In this document: positions 12,552 to 26,006 of the stretch, in pieces
How positions within the stretch are numbered: position 1 is the stretch's first letter
Layout: every line of letters starts with the position of its first letter
NCBI GenBank assembly: GCA_037139495.1
Contig: JBAXGG010000001.1
Location: forward strand, 3,025 to 67,024
Reading direction: 5' to 3'
DNA: 64,000 nt
DNA from: Candidatus Saccharimonadota bacterium
GTDB taxonomy: Bacteria > Patescibacteriota > Saccharimonadia > Saccharimonadales > JAUPVS01
Program-made: the position numbers and the translations under genes
Notes under the pieces: generated by a model
Told to the model about the DNA's origin: nothing
What the model saw: only the letters and a program-made list of their open reading frames with translations
The model's database searches: none

Positions 12552-13862
12552 ATGACCCTGACCAGCAAAAAGAACTTATCTAAAAAAGCCTTACCAATTG
12601 TAATTTTTACCGTCTTTCTTGATGTTTTAGGAGTCGGTATTTTGATTCCCATACTGCCCCAGCTAGTATTCAGAGTATTCATACCAGCCGGCTTTACTTA
12701 CGACCAAGCTCTCATTACTTTAGGCTGGCTAGTCGGTATCTATGCCTTGATGCAGTTCATTGCTACGCCTATACTTGGCCAATTGTCGGACCGTTACGGC
12801 CGGAAAAAGATCTTAGCTATTAGTCTGGGAGGGACGGCCATAGGCTATAGTTTGTTCGCTATAGCAATAATTACCAAAAACATTCCGTTACTATTTTTCT
12901 CGAGAGCGTTTGATGGCATCACTGGTGGAAATATTAGTGTAGCTAGAGCAGTGGTTGCCGACGTTACTAAGCCTAAAGATCGTACCAAAAACTTTGGATT
13001 AATCGGTGCTGCTTTTGGGATTGGGTTTGTAATGGGGCCATATATTGGTGCCCGCCTGGCCTCTCCAAGTGTTAGCTTCTTTGGGCTCTTTAATACGCCT
13101 CATTGGTTTAGCGCCTCAACGCCATTTTGGTTCGCGGCTATCCTGGCAGTAATCAATACGACGCTAGTTCTGTTTATTTTGCCGGAGACCCACAAGCACA
13201 TCAACCACAAACTCAAGATGGTTTGGACTAAGTCTTTGAGTAACATAAAACGAGCTGCTGCGTCACCTGGCCTTAGAATTGTATTTACTTCTGAGTTTTT
13301 GTTCTACGGCGGTTTTACATTCTTTACGACTTTCTTCCAGATCTTGCTAATCCAAAAACTGCATTTTACGCAAAGTAACGTTGGCGACTTCTTTGCTTAC
13401 ATTGGTATATGGATCGCCTTAACCCAAGGTGTATTAACGCCACTCCTGGCCAAGTACTTTAAAAACTACCAGATTCTGCGCTTTACCTTTTTTGGGATGG
13501 GCTTGGCTCTGTTTGCTCAGCTGCTGCCATCCAATGCGACCCAGTTGTTGTTTGCCGCTCCGTTAATTGCGATTTTCGTTGGGTTAACTATGGCAAACAC
13601 CTCTGCTTTAATTAGCTTGTCGGCTGGAGCTGAGATGCAGGGAGAAATTCTTGGTATCGATGCCAGTGTACAGGCGCTGGCAACTGCCATACCGGCCATA
13701 ATTAGCGGATACGTAGCAACAATGGGTGTTAATATGCCAGTAATTGTAGGTGCTGTTGTGGTGATGATCGGTGGACTAATATTTGTTGGCTTCTACCGAC
13801 CATCAAACCATCTTTTACATGAAAGCCCAGCCGAAGCTCTGGCAGAATCTAGAGCAGCCTAA
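12552..13862 (+). CDS. MFS transporter (12 TM), putative drug efflux
   Basis: MFS motif A-like GQLSDRYGRKK and 12 hydrophobic segments. Confidence 0.8.
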   Translation: MTLTSKKNLSKKALPIVIFTVFLDVLGVGILIPILPQLVFRVFIPAGFTYDQALITLGWLVGIYALMQFIATPILGQLSDRYGRKKILAISLGGTAIGYSLFAIAIITKNIPLLFFSRAFDGITGGNISVARAVVADVTKPKDRTKNFGLIGAAFGIGFVMGPYIGARLASPSVSFFGLFNTPHWFSASTPFWFAAILAVINTTLVLFILPETHKHINHKLKMVWTKSLSNIKRAAASPGLRIVFTSEFLFYGGFTFFTTFFQILLIQKLHFTQSNVGDFFAYIGIWIALTQGVLTPLLAKYFKNYQILRFTFFGMGLALFAQLLPSNATQLLFAAPLIAIFVGLTMANTSALISLSAGAEMQGEILGIDASVQALATAIPAIISGYVATMGVNMPVIVGAVVVMIGGLIFVGFYRPSNHLLHESPAEALAESRAA

Positions 13863-13863
13863 A

Positions 13864-15549
13864 ATGACTAAGAAGAAAGCTATCTACATCGAAGATATAC
13901 CTGAGAACGCTGCTGAATATCAAAAAGGTCTGCGTAAGTGGCTACCGATTGTAATCTTGAGCTTGGCGCTGATGATTATCATCGTTGATACCACAGTTCT
14001 TAATGTTTCATTAAAGGTAATTTCTCAAGATCTGCACACTAACTTGCAGGGATTGCAGTGGGTAATTACCGCCTACGCTCTAACGTTAGCAGCGTTTACG
14101 ATTACCGGTGGGCGATTGGGTGACTTATTTGGCCGTAAAAAGATGTTCATGATGGGTGCAGTAATCTTTGCCGGTGGTTCGTTTATTACTTCTATCAGCC
14201 ACTCGGTCGGCATTATGTTAATCGGTGAATCGATTATTGAGGGTATTGGTGCCGCCTTGATGATGCCAGCTACGGCTTCTTTGTTGGTAGCGAACTATAA
14301 AGGGCGAGACCGTGCTATTGCCTTTGGAGTTTGGGGTGGTATTGCTGGGGCGTCCTCGGCCATCGGTCCGATTATTGGTGGTTTTTTGACAACCAACTAC
14401 AGCTGGCGCTGGGCCTTCCGTATTAACATTGTAGTAGCCATAGTGCTGTTAATGGGTTCAGTATTTATCGCAGAGTCACGTGATACTCTGGAGAAGAAGG
14501 AGCTCGACTTTGTTGGCGTATTACTGTCGGCAACCGGTTTGTTCGCTTTTGTTTACGGTATTATTGAGGCTCCAACTTACGGTTGGTGGAAAGCTAGCCA
14601 GCCTTGGAGCATTTTAGGACACAGCTTTACGCTAGGCGGTTATTCGATTACCCCAATCGCCATGGGAATTGGTGTCATCTTGCTTGCCTTGTTTGCGCTT
14701 TGGGAAAACTATGCTGAGAAGCAAGGGCATACACCGCTAGTTTCTCTGAAGTTATTTGCCAATACCCAGTTTACATCGGGTGCGAGCACAGTTGCATTGA
14801 TGTCGCTAGGTATGACTGGTTTAATTTTTGCTGTGCCAGTTTTTCTACAATCAGTCCGTAACCTGGATTCTTTGCACACTGGTCTCGCCCTACTACCTTT
14901 GTCGCTGGCTATTTTGATCGTAGCACCTAGTTCGGCAATTCTCGCAAAACACTATAGCGCTAAGAGGATCATTCAAACTGGCTTACTTATAGCCGTAATT
15001 GCTAGTCAGTATCTGCGTTTATTGATTGGTCCTAATGCCACAGCCTGGAATTTGGCGCCTGGCCTGGCTTTGTTTGGCATTGGCCTTGGCCTAGTTTTTG
15101 CTCAAGCTAGCAATCTAACTTTGTCGGCTGTCTCGGTAGAACAATCCGGCGAGGCATCGGGTGTTAATAACACGATGCGCCAGGTTGGTTCGACCTTTGG
15201 CTCGGCTATTATTGGCGCCGTCGTTCTAACTACCCTCGCCAGTGGCTTAGTTAAGGGTGTAATGAATAGTCCAGATATCCCAACCAAGCTTAAACCACAA
15301 TTATCAGCATTTGTAGCCCGCGACGCTTCGGCCGCTAGCTTGGATGGAGTTAAACTAGATAGTAATACGGCCGCGAAATTGCCAGCCAACACGAGCAATG
15401 TATTAACTGATATAGCACATCAAGCCTCGGCAGATGCCAGCCGTAAGGCTATGTTCTACACAGGAGTATTCTTATTGGGTGCATTCACTGTTTCTTTTGC
15501 ACTCCCCAATACGCGTGACCTAGAAGGCAGGGCCGCCGGACGTCACTAG
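13864..15549 (+). CDS. MFS transporter, DHA2-like (14 TM), putative drug efflux
   Basis: GGRLGDLFGRKK motif and 14 hydrophobic segments. Start placed at MTKKK (ATG 13864) rather than the ORF-track start 13783, to avoid overlap with the upstream MFS gene. Confidence 0.75.
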   Translation: MTKKKAIYIEDIPENAAEYQKGLRKWLPIVILSLALMIIIVDTTVLNVSLKVISQDLHTNLQGLQWVITAYALTLAAFTITGGRLGDLFGRKKMFMMGAVIFAGGSFITSISHSVGIMLIGESIIEGIGAALMMPATASLLVANYKGRDRAIAFGVWGGIAGASSAIGPIIGGFLTTNYSWRWAFRINIVVAIVLLMGSVFIAESRDTLEKKELDFVGVLLSATGLFAFVYGIIEAPTYGWWKASQPWSILGHSFTLGGYSITPIAMGIGVILLALFALWENYAEKQGHTPLVSLKLFANTQFTSGASTVALMSLGMTGLIFAVPVFLQSVRNLDSLHTGLALLPLSLAILIVAPSSAILAKHYSAKRIIQTGLLIAVIASQYLRLLIGPNATAWNLAPGLALFGIGLGLVFAQASNLTLSAVSVEQSGEASGVNNTMRQVGSTFGSAIIGAVVLTTLASGLVKGVMNSPDIPTKLKPQLSAFVARDASAASLDGVKLDSNTAAKLPANTSNVLTDIAHQASADASRKAMFYTGVFLLGAFTVSFALPNTRDLEGRAAGRH

Positions 15550-15605
15550 ACGTAAGCACGATAATAATGGTATAATAGTAATACTGCTTAGGCAGGTTAC
15601 GTTAT

Positions 15606-16008
15606 GGGGCTGAATTTTAAGCTCGACGTTGGACTTTATCAGTTAGACTTGCAGGTCGCTTGCTCAGCGTTATAGGGCAAACCAGACTAGATGCAAAATC
15701 TTCTCTACGCGATGCTAAGGTAGCTGTAGCAAACTTGTTTGCACGCAGTGACTTCGCATTTGCAACAGCTTAAGTTTAATTACTTAAGCCGCTTCTTAAT
15801 CGACACCAGATAGATTAAGTCAGCGTCAAATCATCCGGTTGCTTATCGTATCCTGACTCTTTTACGGTACTAAGACTATGAGTCTGCAAGATGTACTATT
15901 TTGTCTGCTTTATACGCACATCCCTAAGACATTTAAGTAGACTATGCCTGTAGACAGCTAACAAAGATAAACTAGCGGACCCGGGGGCAGTACCCGGCAG
16001 CTCCACCA
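15606..16008 (+). ncRNA. ssrA: tmRNA (ssrA), transfer-messenger RNA
   Basis: 5' end GGGGCTGAATTTTAAGCTCGACG and 3' end GGACCCGGGGGCAGTACCCGGCAGCTCCACCA align with the canonical tmRNA tRNA-like ends (E. coli 3' end GGACGGGGGTTCGAATCCCCCCGGCTCCACCA). Acceptor stem GGGGCTG/CAGCTCC contains the alanine-identity G3:U70 wobble. An internal reading frame ending in TAA (roughly ...ANLFARSDFAFATA*) is a plausible tag peptide. A TGgTATAAT -10 lies at 15568-15576 and a terminator hairpin at 16013-16043. Confidence 0.7.
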
Positions 16009-16012
16009 AATG

Positions 16013-16043
16013 AGACTTATCAATATTTGATAGGTCTTTTTTG
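16013..16043 (+). terminator. Rho-independent terminator after tmRNA
   Basis: agacttatcaa/ttgataggtct hairpin followed by tttttt. Confidence 0.5.
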
Positions 16044-16135
16044 TTTGTTCCTAATTTGTAAATTGACCCTACAGAGGGGGTTTGAACTTTGTGGAATTAC
16101 CTGCACACAGTTCCCCTTTAACTAAGATTTTTTCA

Positions 16136-16837
16136 CTAATCGCTAGAAGTCATGAAAACTACCAATCGTTCATCAAAATCGTTTGTGCCTTGAATAATTT
16201 TACCAGCGCAAGTCATTAAGTTTAGACCAGGTTTGCTCACTAAGACAGGGGATAAAACAGTATTCATATCGACTTGATTGGCTGGGTACGTTTTGGAGCT
16301 AACGACTTTATAGTTAAAAATTCTATCATCACCACGAGTGATGCTCACAGTGTCCCCAATTTTCAGCTTCCTCAAGTCATAAAAAAGACCTTTCGCTTGC
16401 CAACTCGATAAGTGGCCAAATATAAACATTGCCCCTCTTTGTCCCGGTTTAGCGCTGCCATTGTACCAGCCGGCGTCGTTAATATTACCTGGGTTGGTAA
16501 TCTGACCATCTTTGACGTCTAAACTAAATACACGAGCCTTATAGATATTAAGTTTTGTAACTGAAATATACTTTGGTAAATCTGGAGCTACTTTGTATTT
16601 TACAAGCATATCATGAGTTGGTTTATCTATAGATGGTGAAGTGGTTATGTGAACGTCTTTTGGTATTTTGGGCCTTGTTATGTTGGAATATATTATAAAG
16701 GAGCAAATGGTTAGTCCAGCAAAGCCCATGACTATCAAAAATATCGGCAACCAAGTTAGAGTTTTCTTTATTGCTTGGTGACCATTAACCCCCGAAATTT
16801 TTGACCACTCTTTTGTCGATTTTTTCTTATAAGCCAT
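16136..16837 (-). CDS. Sortase (class E/F-like transpeptidase), N-terminally membrane-anchored
   Basis: N-terminal TM helix, conserved His region (MFIFGHLSS), TLXTC catalytic motif (LNLMTCAG) and downstream Arg. AT-rich relative to its flanks. Confidence 0.8.
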   Translation of the reverse strand: MAYKKKSTKEWSKISGVNGHQAIKKTLTWLPIFLIVMGFAGLTICSFIIYSNITRPKIPKDVHITTSPSIDKPTHDMLVKYKVAPDLPKYISVTKLNIYKARVFSLDVKDGQITNPGNINDAGWYNGSAKPGQRGAMFIFGHLSSWQAKGLFYDLRKLKIGDTVSITRGDDRIFNYKVVSSKTYPANQVDMNTVLSPVLVSKPGLNLMTCAGKIIQGTNDFDERLVVFMTSSD

Positions 16838-16994
16838 TACTATATATTAACAAATTAGAATGGAACCACCCTAGTCTTAAGATAGAAAAATGAATTTTAG
16901 ATAGAGTCTTTACTTTATAAACAGGCTAAATAGCCATTATTAATACGTTTATGCTAAACTAATATTAAGTGTTCCAGCAAGAGGTAAAATAACT

Positions 16995-18401
16995 ATGAGA
17001 AAACAGCTTCGTTGGTTAATGGGAATAATTTCGGCAATTATTGCCTCTTCATTGTTGCTTTCGCCAACAATAGCACATGCTTTTACGCCGACTTTCAATG
17101 AATATTCCATACCCGGCGGGCCTGCTCAACCATTTGGAATAACAAGCGGCCCAGACGGTAATTTATGGTTTACCGAACGTTCTAAAGACTTTATTGGTAA
17201 AATTACGACCAGCGGAGTTGTCACCGAATATCCTGTTACCACAATCGGCACTGACAAGTTCAGTATCACGGCTGGGCCGGATAATAATCTTTGGTTTACT
17301 GAAGGTAGTGCCAATAAAATTGGTAAAATTACGACCAGCGGAGTTGTTACCGAATATTCCGTGCCAACAGCATCGGCTAACCCATTTCGGATAATTGCTA
17401 GTTCAGATGGTAACTTGTGGTTTACAGAGGAGTCAGCAAGCGGAATTGCGAAAATTACGACCAGCGGAGTTATCACCGAGTACGTTACCCCTACCAGCAA
17501 CTCAGGGCCAGATGGTATAACACTTGGACCAGATGGTAATATTTGGTTTGCGGAGCGTAATACCAATAATATTGCTAAAGTTACTCCAGCTGGAGTGATT
17601 ACTGAATATCACATCGGCAGTTCATTAGATACAAACGTAGTTGTAGCAGGACCAGATGGGAATATTTGGTTTGCGGAATCAACTGCCGGAAAAATTGGAA
17701 AAATGGCAACAGACGGTACAATACTCGCCGAGTTTTCCCTCCCACATACGTCAACCTTCTTCGAGATGGCTGCCGGACCGGAGGGGAACGTATGGTACAC
17801 CCAGCCAATGGCTACTGATGTAATCGGTCGGGTTACGCCGGAGGGTACAATTACCGAATTTACGCCACCAACGAGCAACTTCCAAGTAGCTGGTATAACC
17901 ACTGGACCAGATGGTAATATATGGTTTACCGAGCAATCCGAATCAAAGATAGGTAGTATGACTATTGCTCAAGCACCTGCTATTACTAATAAAACCGTTA
18001 CTGCTATAACCGGTAAACCGGACATCATTAACGTAGTTAGCGGTATCGGCAATAACCCAGGCCCAGCGACATTATCTATTGTGACTGCCCCCATCCATGG
18101 TAGCGCTACAGTGAATACGACAGATGGTACAATTACCTATACTTCGAATAGCGGTTATATTGGTAGTGATAGCTTAACGTATAGACTTTGCTCTGCTGAT
18201 GATATAGCGTCTTGTAAGCAAGCCGTACTTAGCTTCAGCGTTGTGTCTGATGCAGTAATAGCTCCACCTAAAACTGGTTTTGGAGCCTATACTGACAATA
18301 ACCGACAAAAACTGGCATTATACGGAAGTCTTACTACTATGTGTTTAATGACCTCCTACTTTGTGCGTCGTTACAACCGCAAGAATTCAGTGACTATTTA
18401 G
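16995..18401 (+). CDS. Secreted Vgb/streptogramin-lyase-like beta-propeller repeat protein with a C-terminal Ig-like domain and a sortase-type cell-wall sorting signal
   Basis: Signal peptide, then at least 7 tandem ~42-aa repeats of the form GK-ITTSGV-TEY-VP...GPDGNLWFTE (the Vgb-family blade repeat). C-terminus IAPPKTG + hydrophobic stretch + RRYNRKNS fits an LPXTG-like sorting signal. Confidence 0.7.
   Translation: MRKQLRWLMGIISAIIASSLLLSPTIAHAFTPTFNEYSIPGGPAQPFGITSGPDGNLWFTERSKDFIGKITTSGVVTEYPVTTIGTDKFSITAGPDNNLWFTEGSANKIGKITTSGVVTEYSVPTASANPFRIIASSDGNLWFTEESASGIAKITTSGVITEYVTPTSNSGPDGITLGPDGNIWFAERNTNNIAKVTPAGVITEYHIGSSLDTNVVVAGPDGNIWFAESTAGKIGKMATDGTILAEFSLPHTSTFFEMAAGPEGNVWYTQPMATDVIGRVTPEGTITEFTPPTSNFQVAGITTGPDGNIWFTEQSESKIGSMTIAQAPAITNKTVTAITGKPDIINVVSGIGNNPGPATLSIVTAPIHGSATVNTTDGTITYTSNSGYIGSDSLTYRLCSADDIASCKQAVLSFSVVSDAVIAPPKTGFGAYTDNNRQKLALYGSLTTMCLMTSYFVRRYNRKNSVTI
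17190..17500 (+). repeat. Intragenic tandem DNA repeats (about 123-bp period) with near-identical 30-40 bp cores
   Basis: ggtaaaattacgaccagcggagttgt(c/t)accgaatat recurs at about 17198, 17322 and 17443 with only 1-4 mismatches. Confidence 0.6.
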
Positions 18402-18571
18402 AAAACTTACAAGCTTTCTTCTTAATTCATCTTAGTCGCTCTTTCGTTTTTTATAATTTATATGCTTATCACAGAGTAATTAATGCTAACGTTGTAATTT
18501 CATTAATATTTGAGGTGTGAAAAATTATCAAGGTGCCTCACCATTAAAGACTCATCATTTATGAGTCTTTT

Positions 18572-19738
18572 ATGCTACCTGTTTGTTATGATGAGGCTAT
18601 GGTCATTCATGCTTTTGAACATGCGTTGTCGATGGCTTTTGCGATGGGCTGGGAGATAATATGGCCGCTCATACTGGGTTTTGGGATATCTGGCGCGATT
18701 CAAGCAGTTGTTTCGCATCGCCAAATGAGCCAGTTGCTACCAGATGATAAGCCAAAAACTTTAGTTGTTGCGACAGCTTTGGGGGCAGCGTCCTCTTCTT
18801 GTTCTTACGCCGCCGTGGCCCTGGGCAGGTCGTTAGTTAAAAAAGGGGCTAACTTTACTGCGGCTATGGCTTTTGAGATTGCTTCAACAAACTTAGTTAT
18901 TGAACTGGGAATTATAATGGCGGTTTTATTAGGGTGGCAGTTTACCCTGGCCGAGTTTTTTGGTGGTCCGTTTATGATCATTGTCTTAGCTCTGTTATTT
19001 AAACGCTACCTAACTCCCAAAATGTTAGCTGTTGCTACCAAACAAGCTCAAAAAGGGCTGCCGGGTAAGATGGAAGGCCATGCCGTGATGGATGATATGG
19101 CAGTCGGCGGCAATAAATCGGTTTTTAAAAAATTATTATCATCAGATGGGAAAACCGCAACAAGTCACTTTTACGTTATGGACTGGGCTTCGGTCTGGGT
19201 TGATTTAGCTGTTGGCTTATTGATTGCGGGGGCAGTTGCCGCCTGGGTACCGTCAGAGTTCTTTCAGAAGCTATTTATAACTTCCCATCCGTTACTATCA
19301 GCTCTCTGGGGTCCAATAGTTGGCCCATTGATTGCAATAGTGTCATTTGTATGTAGTGTTGGAAATGTACCACTGGCGGCCGTTCTTTGGAATGGTGGTA
19401 TCAGTTTTGGAGGTGTGGTGGCCTTTATATTTGCTGACTTAATCGTTTTTCCTATCTTGCGCATCTACAAAAAGTATTACGGCGCTAAGATGGCGATCTT
19501 CTTATTTGTGACCTTTTATATTGCCATGGTAGCCGCCGGATATTTCGTTGAGCTGGTATTTTGGTTGTTACATCTGACGCCTACAATCCGCAATGCCAAA
19601 ATTTTGGAGCCAAGTATTACCCTCAACTACACCTCGGTGCTTAACATTATCTTCCTGCTGATAAGTACGGCCCTGGTTTGGCGATTTTTGTGTACCGGCG
19701 GCCCAAAAATGCTAAAGATGATGAACGGCAAGCACTAG
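18572..19738 (+). CDS. Predicted permease of the DUF318/ArsP-like family (pfam03773-type)
   Basis: 8-10 TM segments and a conserved Cys-containing motif SSSCSY near the N-terminus; the true start may be a few codons downstream. Confidence 0.55.
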   Translation: MLPVCYDEAMVIHAFEHALSMAFAMGWEIIWPLILGFGISGAIQAVVSHRQMSQLLPDDKPKTLVVATALGAASSSCSYAAVALGRSLVKKGANFTAAMAFEIASTNLVIELGIIMAVLLGWQFTLAEFFGGPFMIIVLALLFKRYLTPKMLAVATKQAQKGLPGKMEGHAVMDDMAVGGNKSVFKKLLSSDGKTATSHFYVMDWASVWVDLAVGLLIAGAVAAWVPSEFFQKLFITSHPLLSALWGPIVGPLIAIVSFVCSVGNVPLAAVLWNGGISFGGVVAFIFADLIVFPILRIYKKYYGAKMAIFLFVTFYIAMVAAGYFVELVFWLLHLTPTIRNAKILEPSITLNYTSVLNIIFLLISTALVWRFLCTGGPKMLKMMNGKH

Positions 19739-20007
19739 CTTAGAGTTTTATCTATCGCAACATGCATTTATAATAGTTAAGTTGAGTAAACATTAACTAT
19801 GATTAATCTTGATTTGGGTCCGATAGACGATTGTTTCGATGCGATCCGTCAGGTCGACGAACACCATGCGGCGTAGGAACAAGCCCAAGCTTACTCTCAA
19901 TCATAGCAATTACTAAGCACCTAGTATTACCAAGTAACTTATGCTATAATTAGTGGGATTAAGTTAGGCGCTTACATCCGATAAGCGCTTTTTTATTAGG
20001 AAATTTT

Positions 20008-21840
20008 ATGGTCCAAACAACCCAAGATCCCACAAAAATTCGCAATATTGCAATTATCGCCCACGTTGACCATGGTAAAACTACCCTAGTAGACGGGCTT
20101 TTAAAGCAATCCCAGACTTTCCGCGACAACCAGGCCGAAATGAGCCAGGACCTAATTATGGACAGTGGCGATCAAGAAAAAGAGCGGGGGATCACTATCA
20201 CTGCTAAAGTCACGGCTGTTCAGCATGGTGATTACCGAATTAACATTATTGATACCCCTGGTCACGCTGACTTTAGTGGTGAAGTTGAACGGACTTTGAA
20301 TATGGCCGACGGCTGCATACTTATTGTTGATGCTCAAGAAGGCCCAATGCCGCAAACTAAGTTTGTTTTAAGTAAGGCTTTAGCCAATGAACTAAAACCA
20401 ATTGTTATCATCAACAAGATCGACAAAACCGCTAGTCGCGTTAAAGAGGTAGAAGATGAGCTAGCTGATCTTTTCCTAGAACTAGCCGTGCACGAAGACC
20501 AACTTCACTACCCAACCTATTACGCGATCGGTAGAGCCGGCAAAGCTTGGAAAACAATGCCAGCCGACTCAGACGTCGACGGCAACCTAGATGATGTTTT
20601 TGATGCTATTATCGAGCACATCCCAGCCCCGAAGATTAATGTCGATAAACCTTTCCAGATGCTAGTTACCGCTCTGGCTTGGGACACCTTTAAAGGTAAG
20701 TACGCCATTGGCAGGATTACTCAGGGCCATGTTCAAGCTGGCGATCCAGTTACTCTTTGCAAAAAAGACGGCACTTTTACAAAAGCCAAGATTGATCTTG
20801 TATTTATGAGTCATGGCATTAGCCGCTTTGAAGTCGATGGTGGGGTGGCCGGAGATATTGTTCAGCTGACTGGTGTAGCCGATGCCAAAATTGGCGAAAC
20901 TATTGCTGACGCCGATAACCCCGAGGCCCTACCTGTACTAGAAGTCGAAGCCCCGACGCTTAAAATTTATCTTGGCCCTAATACTAGCCCAATGAAGGGA
21001 CTAGAAGGGGAATTTACTACTTCTCGTCAGATTGGCGAACGTTTACAGAAAGAATTAGAAACTAATGTTGGTCTGCGCGTCGAGGATGAAGGCATAGGCT
21101 TTTTGGTCTCTGGCCGCGGTGAACTCCACCTTTCTGTTTTGATCGAAACCATGCGCCGCGAAGGTTATGAATTCGAAGTTGGCCGCCCGCAGGTTGTAAC
21201 CCGCGAAACTAACGGTTCCATCGAAGAACCACTTGAAGAAGTAATTATCGAAGTTCCGGCCGAACACGTCGGTACTGTCCAGATGGAACTGGGCAAACGC
21301 CGTGCTGTCCTAAAAGAACAGTTTGCGAGCCCTAAAGGCGTTACAAAGTTGGTCTATGAATTGCCAACTCGAGCTCTTTTGGGTATGCGTAACATCTTAT
21401 TGACGAATACCAAGGGTACTATCGTTATGAACAGCTTAATCATTGGTTATCAACCCCTAGGCAGTGCCTTACAGCAACTCCGTAGTGGTGTCTTAATTGC
21501 TTTCGAAACTGGCATTACCACTCCGTACGCATTGCAGAACGCTGAAGCTCGTGGTGTTACCTTTGTCGGCCCGGCTATTAAAGTTTATGCCGGTCAAATT
21601 GTCGGCCTCAACAGCCGCAATGAAGACATGGAAATTAACGTATGCAAGGGTAAGCATTTAACTAACATGCGTAGTTCCAGTAGTGACGGTGTCGTGCAGT
21701 TGACCCCCCCAATTACTTTTAGCCTCGAAGAGTGCCTCGACTTCATCGAAAACGACGAACTTTTGGAAGTCACGCCAGAGAGCTTGCGACTGCGTAAAAG
21801 GGAATTAGACCCTAGCAAACGCAAACGCGCTGCCAAGTAA
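20008..21840 (+). CDS. typA: Translational GTPase TypA/BipA
   Basis: [20 protein letters not shown]1 motif, DTPGHADF G3 motif, EF-G-like domain architecture; 610 aa. Confidence 0.9.
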
Positions 21841-23961: not shown

Positions 23962-25275
23962 TTGACGTTAGCAGGTAGGACTCCTAAGCTTACAAGTAAG
24001 ATGTTAGAAAAAGCCAGAAAAATTGTTGTTCGGTTCACCACTGGCAAAAAACCACACGAATTGTCTTCCGATGACGTACAAGCGGCTCGTCAATATATTA
24101 TGCATTACTGGAAAAAGCTACAACGATATCATCCGCATGATGATGAAACGCTTTTTGGTTTGCCTAAACCATACTTGGTACCAGCTTACGAAGAAGGACA
24201 TAGTTTTGATTTCAACGAGCTTTACTACTGGGACAGCTATTTTATGGTCCAGGGTTTTTTAACTAAAGGCCACAAGGATTTAGTGACCGGTATTTTGGAG
24301 GATTTAATTTCACTCCAAAAACGCCTTAAGATTATACCTAACGCATCAAGGACATATTTAACAGGCCGTTCCCAGCCGCCTTTGCTAACTAGCTTTATTT
24401 TTGACGTTTATGAGGCCTACGATATGGGCGACAAGTGGTTGGCTGAAAACATCGCAATATCTAAGGAGGAATACCATGGTGTCTGGATGGGAGTCACTAA
24501 ACCAAATGAACGTAGAATATATCGGGGCCTGAGCCGCTACTACGATATTAATTACTTACACGACTTAGCCGAAGCCGAGAGCGCCTGGGATATGACACCA
24601 CGCTTTGGCCGTAAAGCTTTGAATTATTTACCTGTTGACCTAAATGCCTTGCTCTACAAGTACGAGACTGATTTTGCCCGCGCCGCTGAGATTGCCGGCA
24701 ACCACAAAGAGGCGCAAACTTGGCTACATAGCGCTAAGGTTCGCAAAAAAACCATGGACGAGCTTATGTGGAGCCCTTCCAGGGACTTTTACTATGACTA
24801 CGATTTTGTTCGTAAACGCCGCGGATCGGTATCTTCCCTAGCTGGTTTCTATCCGATGTGGGCCGGGATGGTCGATAAGGACCAGGCTGCAGCATTGGTT
24901 CGTATGCTAAAACGATTTGAGCACAAAGGTGGACTGTCTACTACCGACCAGCAGTTTAATCAGCGCCTACCGGGTCAGATTCCTGGTAACGGCAATACTC
25001 CAACACAGTGGGCCTACCCTAATGGCTGGGCGCCACTTCACTACATTATTATACAGGCTTTAGAGCGTTACGGTTACCACTCTGACGCCCGCAGGATTGC
25101 TTTTAAGTGGCTAAAAACTAACCTTGATTGGTTCGACAATGAAGAAATCTTTTTGGAAAAATATAACGTCGTTAACCCCGAAAAGCCTCCGATAAAGGGT
25201 CTATATCCATCACAAACTGGCTTTGGCTGGACAAATGCTATCTTCGAGCGACTCTGCCAAGATTACATCGACTGA
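23962..25275 (+). CDS. treA: Trehalase (glycoside hydrolase family 37)
   Basis: Matches both GH37 signatures: DFNELYYWDSYF (R-F-x-E-x-Y-x-W-D-x-Y type) and QWAYPNGWAP (Q-W-D-x-P-x-G-W-[PAS]-P type). The real start may be at MLEKARK (24001). Confidence 0.75.
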   Translation: MTLAGRTPKLTSKMLEKARKIVVRFTTGKKPHELSSDDVQAARQYIMHYWKKLQRYHPHDDETLFGLPKPYLVPAYEEGHSFDFNELYYWDSYFMVQGFLTKGHKDLVTGILEDLISLQKRLKIIPNASRTYLTGRSQPPLLTSFIFDVYEAYDMGDKWLAENIAISKEEYHGVWMGVTKPNERRIYRGLSRYYDINYLHDLAEAESAWDMTPRFGRKALNYLPVDLNALLYKYETDFARAAEIAGNHKEAQTWLHSAKVRKKTMDELMWSPSRDFYYDYDFVRKRRGSVSSLAGFYPMWAGMVDKDQAAALVRMLKRFEHKGGLSTTDQQFNQRLPGQIPGNGNTPTQWAYPNGWAPLHYIIIQALERYGYHSDARRIAFKWLKTNLDWFDNEEIFLEKYNVVNPEKPPIKGLYPSQTGFGWTNAIFERLCQDYID

Positions 25276-26006
25276 AAAGATGTGATGGGCATTATTTTGT
25301 CCTGAAGATTGACTATTGATGTATCGAAAGCATACTTTTCTTGATCAAGTAACATTATTGTTGCTACGCCAGAGGCAACTTTCAGTAAACCCGGACCATC
25401 TAAAACACTAACTCCGCAAGCTGTAACTTCTCGGTTATCGCTGATCGCATCAAATGAAACAGCAAACAAATCGAATGTGCTTAAGAAACCTGGTTCATGA
25501 TCTAAACTGTAACTAGGTTTGTTTACTATTCCAGCAGTATTTAATGGATTTAAAAGTCCCCTTACGCCAGATAATTTTGCATCTTTCCTGATTTTGGAGG
25601 CTGCTCTATCAAAAATGTTGTCAGACATATTGGCATGACTAATGCCAATTAAATTGAATAAGGAGATGCCGACGGCGCGTGCTACCATTACTTCATCAAG
25701 CTGTTTTGATCGGCGAGTTTCTTCGGTCATAGCATAGGCTTTAGCGCCAATGTATTGAATGACTTTAGTATAGTAAGTTGTAAAATCCAAATCTGGTGCA
25801 AAATTTGATTTCACAGATTCCACTTTTTCGCTAAGCAAGTGAGTGTAGAATCCTTTATGAATTCTAAATAGCTCTGCTTCCGAATAAGATAGAATGATAC
25901 TAGTCTTAGACTTTGCAACTTTTTCTGTTTGACGTAATTGCCTTGCCTCCGGTGAGCGAGTGAAATTCATAAAAAACATTATATCACTAATGGTCAGTAA
26001 AGTCAA
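25263..26006 (-). CDS. Hypothetical protein (orphan, AT-rich, opposite strand to all neighbours)
   Basis: 247-aa ORF with no recognisable motifs; visibly lower GC than the flanking trehalase and metG genes; 3' end overlaps the trehalase stop by 13 nt. Confidence 0.45.
   Translation of the reverse strand: MTLLTISDIMFFMNFTRSPEARQLRQTEKVAKSKTSIILSYSEAELFRIHKGFYTHLLSEKVESVKSNFAPDLDFTTYYTKVIQYIGAKAYAMTEETRRSKQLDEVMVARAVGISLFNLIGISHANMSDNIFDRAASKIRKDAKLSGVRGLLNPLNTAGIVNKPSYSLDHEPGFLSTFDLFAVSFDAISDNREVTACGVSVLDGPGLLKVASGVATIMLLDQEKYAFDTSIVNLQDKIMPITSFQSM

Follow-up and report, generated by a model that had tools for sequence, protein, structure and literature searches.

A sortase gene paired with a propeller-Ig protein bearing a variant sorting signal in the variable tmRNA-typA interval of a Saccharibacteria genome

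Does a sortase encoded just downstream of the transfer-messenger RNA (tmRNA) gene of a Saccharibacteria genome serve the secreted beta-propeller protein encoded beside it, and is the locus a genomic island? The question was raised by an earlier note on a 64,000-nucleotide stretch of DNA from a metagenome-assembled genome of Candidatus Saccharibacteria (contig JBAXGG010000001.1 of GenBank assembly GCA_037139495.1, positions 3,025 to 67,024). This whole stretch, which has a G+C (GC) content of 44.8%, is called the window hereafter. The note proposed that a dedicated sortase and a single cognate propeller protein form a cell-cell attachment module in an AT-rich island at the tmRNA gene. In summary, comparative data show the pair to be a typical member of a widespread and recurrent cassette consisting of a class-F-like sortase and a propeller protein with an immunoglobulin (Ig)-like domain and a non-canonical sorting signal, which is termed APxTG-type here. 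It is probable that the two genes form a cell-surface display cassette, in which the sortase would cleave its substrate between Thr and Gly (PPKT/G) and link the propeller on an Ig stalk to peptidoglycan. The features of the pair are as follows (plus and minus refer to the strand).

16136-16837, minus: membrane-anchored sortase, 233 residues (Pfam Sortase, N-terminal hydrophobic anchor, catalytic triad)
16838-16994: divergent intergenic spacer, 157 bp, AT-rich (GC 0.32-0.35 in sliding windows spanning it)
16995-18401, plus: secreted substrate protein, 468 residues (Pfam Vgb_lyase and Big_9)
16995-17081, plus: Sec-type signal peptide, residues 1-29, with predicted cleavage AHA/F (from reading the sequence)
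17082-17969, plus: seven-bladed Vgb-like beta-propeller, residues 30-325
17970-18245, plus: Big_9 Ig-like beta-sandwich, residues 326-417 (Pfam Big_9, 4.8e-08, at residues 326-401)
18264-18398, plus: non-canonical cell-wall sorting signal (PPKTG, spacer, hydrophobic segment, basic tail)

The sortase and its putative substrate

The product of the minus-strand gene matches the Pfam Sortase family (PF04203) at 58.8 bits (cutoff 26.6, E = 5.9e-16) and has an N-terminal membrane anchor at about residues 26-51. Thus, the membrane-anchored sortase with the motif LNLMTCAG that the note had described, divergently paired with the gene of a secreted protein, is present. Completeness of the catalytic triad had been set as a check. 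In an alignment of 23 sortases (the window sortase, 20 database homologues, and two sortases adjoining homologues of the substrate protein), His142, Cys210 in LNLMTCAG, and Arg224 are invariant, while Asn replaces the first Thr of the TLxTC motif in the window sortase (NLMTC). When the NCBIfam sortase classes were compared, class F (NF033748) was best at 93.1 bits, which is below its curated cutoff of 166, and the other classes scored 27 bits or less. The NCBI record of the protein carries the name "class F sortase". The nearest sortases, with 52-62% identity, come from Saccharimonadales and other Patescibacteria. The protein is a member of the sortase superfamily and, judged by these scores, is most similar to class F.

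The 468-residue protein starts with a predicted signal peptide. The A-x-A/FTPT junction (TIAHA/FTPTF in the window protein) is common to three homologues, P0003, P0057, and P0096, and the AlphaFold2 (AF2) model has an N-terminal helix at residues 2-25. The following region matches Pfam Vgb_lyase with 323 bits (E = 1.6e-96). The note had counted at least seven propeller blades; the propeller is confirmed and the number can be fixed at exactly seven, as there are exactly seven GPDGNxWFxE motifs and as the AF2 model (mean pLDDT, the per-residue confidence score, 87.8) has 28 strands at residues 33-323, corresponding to seven four-stranded blades. In Foldseek, the propeller superposes on the streptogramin lyase Vgb (PDB 2z2n) with a template-modelling (TM) score of 0.95, a root-mean-square deviation (rmsd) of 1.6 A, and 34% identity, and 2qc5 was also superposed. 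Past the propeller, the model shows a beta-sandwich at residues 333-417 (pLDDT >90), a disordered linker, and a terminal helix. The sandwich and the Pfam Big_9 match bear out the Ig-like domain of the note, and the Big_9 domain is a stalk or spacer domain. An exhaustive HMMER search revealed that more than 15,000 representative proteins match the Big_9-containing C-terminal module, the best of them being giant repeat proteins.

Could the protein be a true streptogramin B (virginiamycin B) lyase and thus confer antibiotic resistance, in line with several annotations of homologues? The Pfam match, the Foldseek TM score, a score of 259 bits with the NCBIfam Vgb(A) model, and the name "streptogramin lyase" that JGI gives to many homologues favour this. 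However, the curated cutoff of the Vgb(A) model is 600 bits (the Vgb(B) score is 200 bits), and in a global alignment the catalytic His270 of Vgb aligns with Ala299 of the window propeller, which is the identical change to that of the inactive mutant 2z2p. The catalytic role of His270 was taken from the title of that PDB entry ("catalytically inactive H270A"). At the His270 column of an alignment of 32 sequences, the common residues do not include His. Two further Vgb residues that I take to be catalytic, E268 and H228, align with Gln and Phe of the window protein. Moreover, Vgb chains of solved structure have about 295-300 residues and a single domain, whereas in the window protein the propeller is accompanied by a signal peptide, an Ig stalk, and a wall or membrane anchor. 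The lyase reading, which is extremely improbable, was rejected on the basis of the His-to-Ala change and the NCBIfam scores well under the cutoff. Thus, the "Vgb-type" label of the note stands for the fold and falls for the lyase active site, which has been lost. Because the Vgb fold is present without that active site, the most likely function of the propeller is to bind a ligand and not to cleave an antibiotic. JGI uses the names "streptogramin lyase" and "virginiamycin B lyase" for many propeller homologues. Such names probably inflate the counts of resistance genes in metagenomes, and "streptogramin lyase" labels on proteins of this kind mislead resistance-gene surveys.

The C-terminus of the protein reads VIA-PPKTG-FGAYTDNNRQK-LALYGSLTTMCLMTSYFV-RRYNRKNSVTI. 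PPKTG occupies residues 424-428 and is followed by the 11-residue spacer FGAYTDNNRQK (FG and nine polar residues), the 18-residue hydrophobic segment LALYGSLTTMCLMTSYFV (residues 440-457), which is weak with a Kyte-Doolittle mean of about 1.3, and a positively charged tail at the extreme C-terminus. A helix is predicted at residues 435-462 in the AF2 model. The pentapeptide keeps the Pro, Thr, and Gly of LPXTG, while the Leu is replaced. The note had called this tail LPXTG-like and had named a sorting-signal model as a check. Neither the window tail nor the tails of the three homologues gave a match at E <= 10 to the NCBIfam model LPXTG_anchor (TIGR01167), whereas a canonical LPNTG tail from a related locus (L021), used as a control, scored 19.7 against a cutoff of 15.9. 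Thus, the three-part layout holds but the tail is not a canonical LPXTG signal. The failure of the LPXTG model does not refute a sorting signal, because the comparative data below reverse that conclusion: the tail belongs to a recurrent class of its own.

APxTG-type signals beside related sortases

Is the pairing found in other genomes? Only three database proteins share the full architecture of the substrate, namely P0003 (57% identity), P0057 (46%; named Candidatus Dormibacteraeota by NCBI), and P0096 (43%). Their tails contain KAPDTGFG, AAPATGFG, and IVPATGFG, respectively, and in all three a hydrophobic segment and an RKY tail come next. The loci of P0003 and P0057 were both looked up, and each has a gene for a sortase of the same family immediately downstream. 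The locus bearing the closest substrate homologue is L002. In L086, which encodes the closest homologue of the window sortase, the sortase gene is divergent from a gene for a protein with a BNR/sortilin propeller and a Big_9 domain ending in KAPNTGAG, and a second protein, with Vgb and Big_9 domains and AAPDTGAG, is encoded 2 kb away.

I then use the term APxTG-type signal for [A/T/S/P]-P-x-T-G-[F/Y/L]-[G/A] followed by a spacer of 9-15 residues, a hydrophobic segment, and a basic tail, with a sortase of this clade adjoining. The window protein fits this definition with PPKTG-FG, its 11-residue spacer, and the sortase gene 157 bp distant. Metagenome contigs were scanned with the sortase alignment, which gave 80 sortase loci with a total of 0.50 Mb. 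In 34 of the 47 loci of at least 4 kb, an ORF (open reading frame) carries an APxTG-type tail, usually 0-750 bp from the sortase gene. The 80 loci contain 54 tails, 52 of which are distinct; the first position is Ala in 34, Thr in 8, Ser in 6, Pro in 2, Met in 1, and Val in 1, and none of the 54 has Leu at this position (LPxTG). The Pro, Thr, and Gly are invariant in the 52 distinct tails, the third position is mostly Asp or Asn, and the motif is followed by Phe, Tyr, or Leu and then by Gly or Ala. The hydrophobic core begins 9-15 residues past the TG in the tails linked to this clade. Variants resembling that of the window, PPDTG-FG and PPDTG-YG, were found in L105 and L110. As a control, typA loci of related Saccharibacteria (1.33 Mb), chosen irrespective of any sortase, contained four APxTG-type tails and five canonical LP[NK]TG tails with a spacer of 3-4 residues. 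The density of APxTG-type tails near the clade sortases is about 36 times that of the control loci. Thus, the gene and the motif are linked.

What do these signals anchor? When 20 neighbouring substrates were compared with Pfam, they proved to be mostly beta-propellers (BNR/sortilin-Vps10, Kelch, NHL/SGL, PD40, and DUF6923). Several have Big_9 or He_PIG after the propeller, a few have Laminin_G_3 or GLUG/M26_N, and five have no Pfam match.

It may be argued that the tail is only a membrane anchor and that the sortase is a general enzyme acting on other, canonical substrates, so that the adjacency would be coincidental. The lack of a match to the LPXTG_anchor hidden Markov model, the canonical LPNTG and LPKTG proteins of related Saccharibacteria, and the orphan sortases of the clade fit this explanation. 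However, the invariant Pro, Thr, and Gly and the following [F/Y/L][G/A] recur in 52 distinct sortase-adjoining tails on unrelated N-terminal domains, the density is about 36 times that of the control, and LPxTG was not found beside the clade sortases. A coincidental adjacency is therefore very unlikely. The reading as a dedicated sortase with its cognate substrate, which the note had offered, gains strong comparative support from the 34 of 47 loci and from the neighbours of P0003 and P0057.

Several observations weigh against this reading of a dedicated pair. The score of the window sortase (93.1 bits) is under the NCBIfam class F cutoff of 166, the substrate tail fails the curated LPXTG_anchor model, and the hydrophobic segment is weaker (about 1.3) than those of the homologues (1.7-3.1). 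No adjacent substrate is present at L087, on the P0136 contig, or at 13 of the 47 sortase loci, and some APxTG-type substrates are encoded far from any sortase (L055 and L075). Since some sortases are orphans and some substrates are remote, the pairing is frequent but not obligate, and the window sortase may serve other substrates elsewhere in the genome. In addition, other Saccharimonadales sortases match the window sortase better (220-237 bits) than do the sortases beside the closest substrate homologues (172-175 bits). Therefore, the sortase and substrate genes may not share one history and need not have arrived together.

A few loci deserve mention on their own. On the contigs with P0057 (L003 8001-13229), the Vgb-Big_9 protein and the sortase are encoded about 2 kb upstream of typA, which echoes the window; this proximity may be a coincidence or a trace of a shared transferred block. 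At L086 (1278-3860), one 860-residue product has Vgb and Big_9 domains and a complete signal composed of AAPDTGAG, a hydrophobic segment, and the tail RKTTKK, and it continues with no stop codon into a second protein with its own signal peptide (MIKKLLLSLTALTASLLVFTGTAHA) and PATR repeats. A stop codon may have been lost, the assembly may be wrong at this point, or the two proteins may be truly fused, with the sorting signal inside the product. The contig Ga0207687_10000001 (1.13 Mb, the size of a genome of the candidate phyla radiation, CPR) encodes two paralogous sortases of the clade (L122 and L149), one of which has two adjacent APDTG-FA substrates and the other none.

Related Saccharibacteria have two kinds of signals. 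In the first, found in L011, L021, L034, L038, and L051, AG or PG comes after LP[NK]TG and the spacer measures 3-4 residues. In the second, found in L055 and L075, [FYHL]G or A comes after [AVT]PDTG and the spacer measures 9-15 residues. This suggests two separate sorting pathways in the Saccharibacteria lineage.

How might the cassette work? In the display mechanism that I consider probable, the 468-residue protein would be exported via the Sec pathway and its signal peptide removed after Ala29. The C-terminal hydrophobic segment and basic tail would hold the protein temporarily in the membrane, where the adjoining membrane-anchored sortase would use His142, Cys210, and Arg224 to cut PPKT/G, the proposed target peptide being VIAPPKTGFGAY. 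The sortase would then pass the protein to a peptidoglycan precursor, and the propeller on its Ig-like stalk would be displayed covalently on the wall. A class C-like pilus assembly was also considered and rejected, because only one substrate is encoded in the cassette, which lacks a second pilin-like gene. For an episymbiotic lineage, the propeller could plausibly bind a surface component of the host or partner cell. The adhesive or ligand-binding role is inferred, as are the cleavage site and the wall attachment, and the cassette may function in cell-cell attachment as the note had proposed.

A broader proposal can be made only tentatively, with the chances slightly against it: the class-F-like clade would be naturally specific for [A/T/S/P]-P-[D/N]-T-G-[F/Y/L]-[G/A] and would be a dedicated system for displaying binding proteins that consist of a beta-propeller plus an Ig domain. 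The clade is found in Saccharibacteria and other Patescibacteria and, beside close substrate homologues, in Dormibacteraeota. If true, class F sortases would gain a first defined set of substrates, and a natural sortase with a specificity orthogonal to LPXTG would be available.

The interval between the tmRNA gene and typA

Does the locus represent an island at the tmRNA gene? The features that bound and fill the interval, apart from the pair itself, are as follows.

15547-15576: promoter-like site upstream of the tmRNA gene
15606-16008, plus: tmRNA (ssrA) gene, the left landmark of the variable interval (Rfam RF00023)
16012-16038, plus: intrinsic-terminator-like hairpin of the tmRNA gene, a 12-pair stem and then a T run
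16048-20022: variable segment, 3.97 kb, with the sortase, the substrate, and an ArsP-type permease
18572-19738, plus: ArsP_1-type permease (Pfam ArsP_1, 1.7e-69)
20008-21840: typA

The tmRNA gene that the note had placed beside the pair was confirmed by Rfam RF00023 with 57.1 bits (gathering score 47, E = 1e-19) over model positions 1-374, which is the full model. An orthologue was found at the syntenic place in 11 relatives with nhmmer. A run of ARAGORN on the window did not report a tmRNA at 15606-16008, and ssrA may be under-reported in Saccharibacteria screens using ARAGORN alone. The sortase ORF starts 128 bp past the end of the tmRNA gene and points towards it. The promoters of the sortase and substrate genes are presumably both located in the 157-bp spacer, where one minus-strand promoter-like site was found at 16921-16894. 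The ArsP_1 permease is co-resident cargo of the variable segment and lies outside the sortase module.

I compared typA loci with 10-kb flanks from 80 related species, whose TypA proteins are 79-91% identical to that of the window, and aligned the window with the closest of them (L006, TypA 91%) by blastn. In 11 of the 80 loci, the order G5-domain gene, rsmA, (MarR, MFS), tmRNA, ..., typA is kept. The tmRNA-typA interval of these 11 syntenic relatives is 0.7-4.6 kb long and has different cargo each time, including NUDIX, L,D-transpeptidase, PEBP, GH5 cellulase, threonine synthase, a pectate-lyase-like protein, MFS, DEAD-box helicase, and hypothetical proteins. Conservation of the locus across relatives had been set as a check; neither the sortase cassette nor the ArsP gene was found near typA in any of the 80 loci. 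In L006, 0.87 kb with two small ORFs replaces the 3.97-kb segment: window 15606-16047 aligns to L006 8698-9144, and homology ends past the tmRNA terminator and resumes at 20023 inside typA. The tmRNA-typA interval is a real gene-flux zone. A second MFS gene upstream of the tmRNA gene (13783-15549) is missing in L006 and present in L058, and therefore the gene content varies on both sides of ssrA. Elsewhere among the typA loci, L075 has two Vgb-like proteins with an APxTG-type tail within the 10-kb flanks and outside the tmRNA-typA interval, and L043 has a weak, distant sortase match.

Was the segment inserted by an integrase? ssrA is a common integration target, and the segment might be a classical island that was inserted site-specifically at the tmRNA 3' end and has since decayed. 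It begins 40 bp past the tmRNA gene, the closest relative lacks it, the cargo differs in each of the 11 syntenic relatives, the sortase gene is AT-rich (GC 38.2%, z -2.7 among 46 ORFs), and both genes of the pair have a lowish GC at third codon positions (GC3, about 36% in both, z -1.5). However, Pfam revealed no integrase or recombinase among the window genes or among 20 ORFs from the intervals of the 11 relatives. A direct repeat of the tmRNA 3' end was not found in the window with up to three mismatches, and an exact repeat of at least 12 nucleotides was not found within 9 kb downstream in the 11 relatives. The note, too, had reported neither an integrase nor an attachment-site (att) repeat in the window. 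Furthermore, the substrate and permease genes have an ordinary GC content (44.1%, z -0.3, and 45.2%, respectively), and the variability of the MFS gene upstream of ssrA indicates that the flux is not confined to the 3' side. I regard a decayed integrase island as unlikely, and the segment would rather turn over between ssrA and typA without an integrase. Of the island proposed by the note, the hypervariable interval remains and the ssrA-directed integration does not. Its statement that both genes and the spacer are AT-richer applies to the sortase gene and the spacer; the substrate gene is only mildly low in GC3.

One candidate mark of insertion and one of foreign origin were discarded. The sequence AGCTCCACCTAA at 18260-18271 shares 11 of its 12 bases with the tmRNA 3' end (AGCTCCACCAAA) and lies inside the APPK codons of the sorting motif. 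It was rejected as an att-like repeat, as a search for CAGCTCCACCA with one mismatch gave about as many hits as in shuffled sequence. The low GC content of the sortase gene was rejected as a mark of foreign origin. Two other window genes are as AT-rich, and one of them is MarR, which is conserved at the syntenic place in relatives; a value shared with such a gene is not diagnostic. A 247-residue ORF at 25263-26006 on the minus strand is a more extreme outlier than the sortase gene, with the lowest GC content in the window (37.5%), a GC3 of 31.5%, and a z of about -3. It overlaps the end of a trehalase-like gene and has no Pfam match on record.

Comparison with known systems

Why would such a cassette matter? 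Saccharibacteria live on the surface of other bacteria, and apart from type IV pili, little is known of the surface proteins with which they adhere. A propeller that is carried on an Ig stalk, linked covalently to the wall by a sortase of its own, and encoded in a region of fast turnover would be a concrete candidate for a strain-specific binding factor. The recurrent link between the sortase clade and APxTG[F/Y]G provides a testable hypothesis for the function of class F-like sortases, and a natural enzyme preferring APxTG, if it exists, would be useful as a tool.

Gram-positive bacteria have clusters of a sortase gene and its substrate genes, such as the class B isd loci, the class C pilus islands, and the class D spore loci. 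The window locus resembles them in that a specialised sortase gene lies beside the gene of an anchored protein, in which the passenger follows a signal peptide and precedes a short TG-ending motif, a hydrophobic segment, and a basic tail. Unlike them, it has a single substrate, no pilin genes, and a beta-propeller as the passenger. The window-type motif has Ala, Thr, Ser, or Pro in place of Leu, and the spacer is 9-15 residues in length as against 3-4 residues in the canonical tails of related genomes.

The propeller resembles Vgb (PDB 2z2n and 2qc5) as a seven-bladed structure, with the identity, rmsd, and TM score given above, but it differs in the replacement of His270 by Ala, in being secreted and anchored, and in having an extra Ig domain. 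Like the islands and prophages that target ssrA, the segment consists of variable cargo immediately downstream of ssrA that the nearest relative lacks; unlike them, it has neither an integrase gene nor a second copy of the ssrA 3' end, and the 11 relatives do not have them either.

Class F sortases (NF033748/IPR042001), whose prototype is SrtF of Propionibacterium acnes, form the class closest to the window sortase, which shares the single N-terminal anchor, the His-Cys-Arg residues, and LxTC. On the other hand, the score lies below the cutoff of 166, and the host belongs to the CPR and is not an actinobacterium. The P. acnes enzyme, the one characterised class F sortase, is reported to use LPXTG (PMC8225981), whereas the substrates linked to the clade of the window sortase have [A/T/S/P]PxTG[F/Y/L][G/A]. 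The physiological role of class F sortases has been stated as unknown (PMC13251363).

More than half of CPR genomes encode a sortase, and CPR-enriched protein families have been tied to pili and cell-cell interaction, according to Meheust et al. 2019 (PMC6744442). The sortase family fam000526, listed there as enriched in CPR, is among the closest systems with which the window sortase can be compared. The passages of that paper that were consulted do not describe cognate substrates or a signal motif, and the link to propellers comes from the present analysis. In the literature that could be searched, which is partial, APXTG appears only as a specificity of engineered sortases for protein ligation, and no paper joining Patescibacteria, sortase, and sorting signal was found, which is an absence of evidence. 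The recurrent pairing of this sortase clade with the APxTG-type signal is apparently undescribed. The locus is not a canonical LPXTG substrate locus, not a Vgb lyase locus, and not an ssrA-integrase island; it is classed here as a known kind of sortase-substrate cassette with a variant signal.

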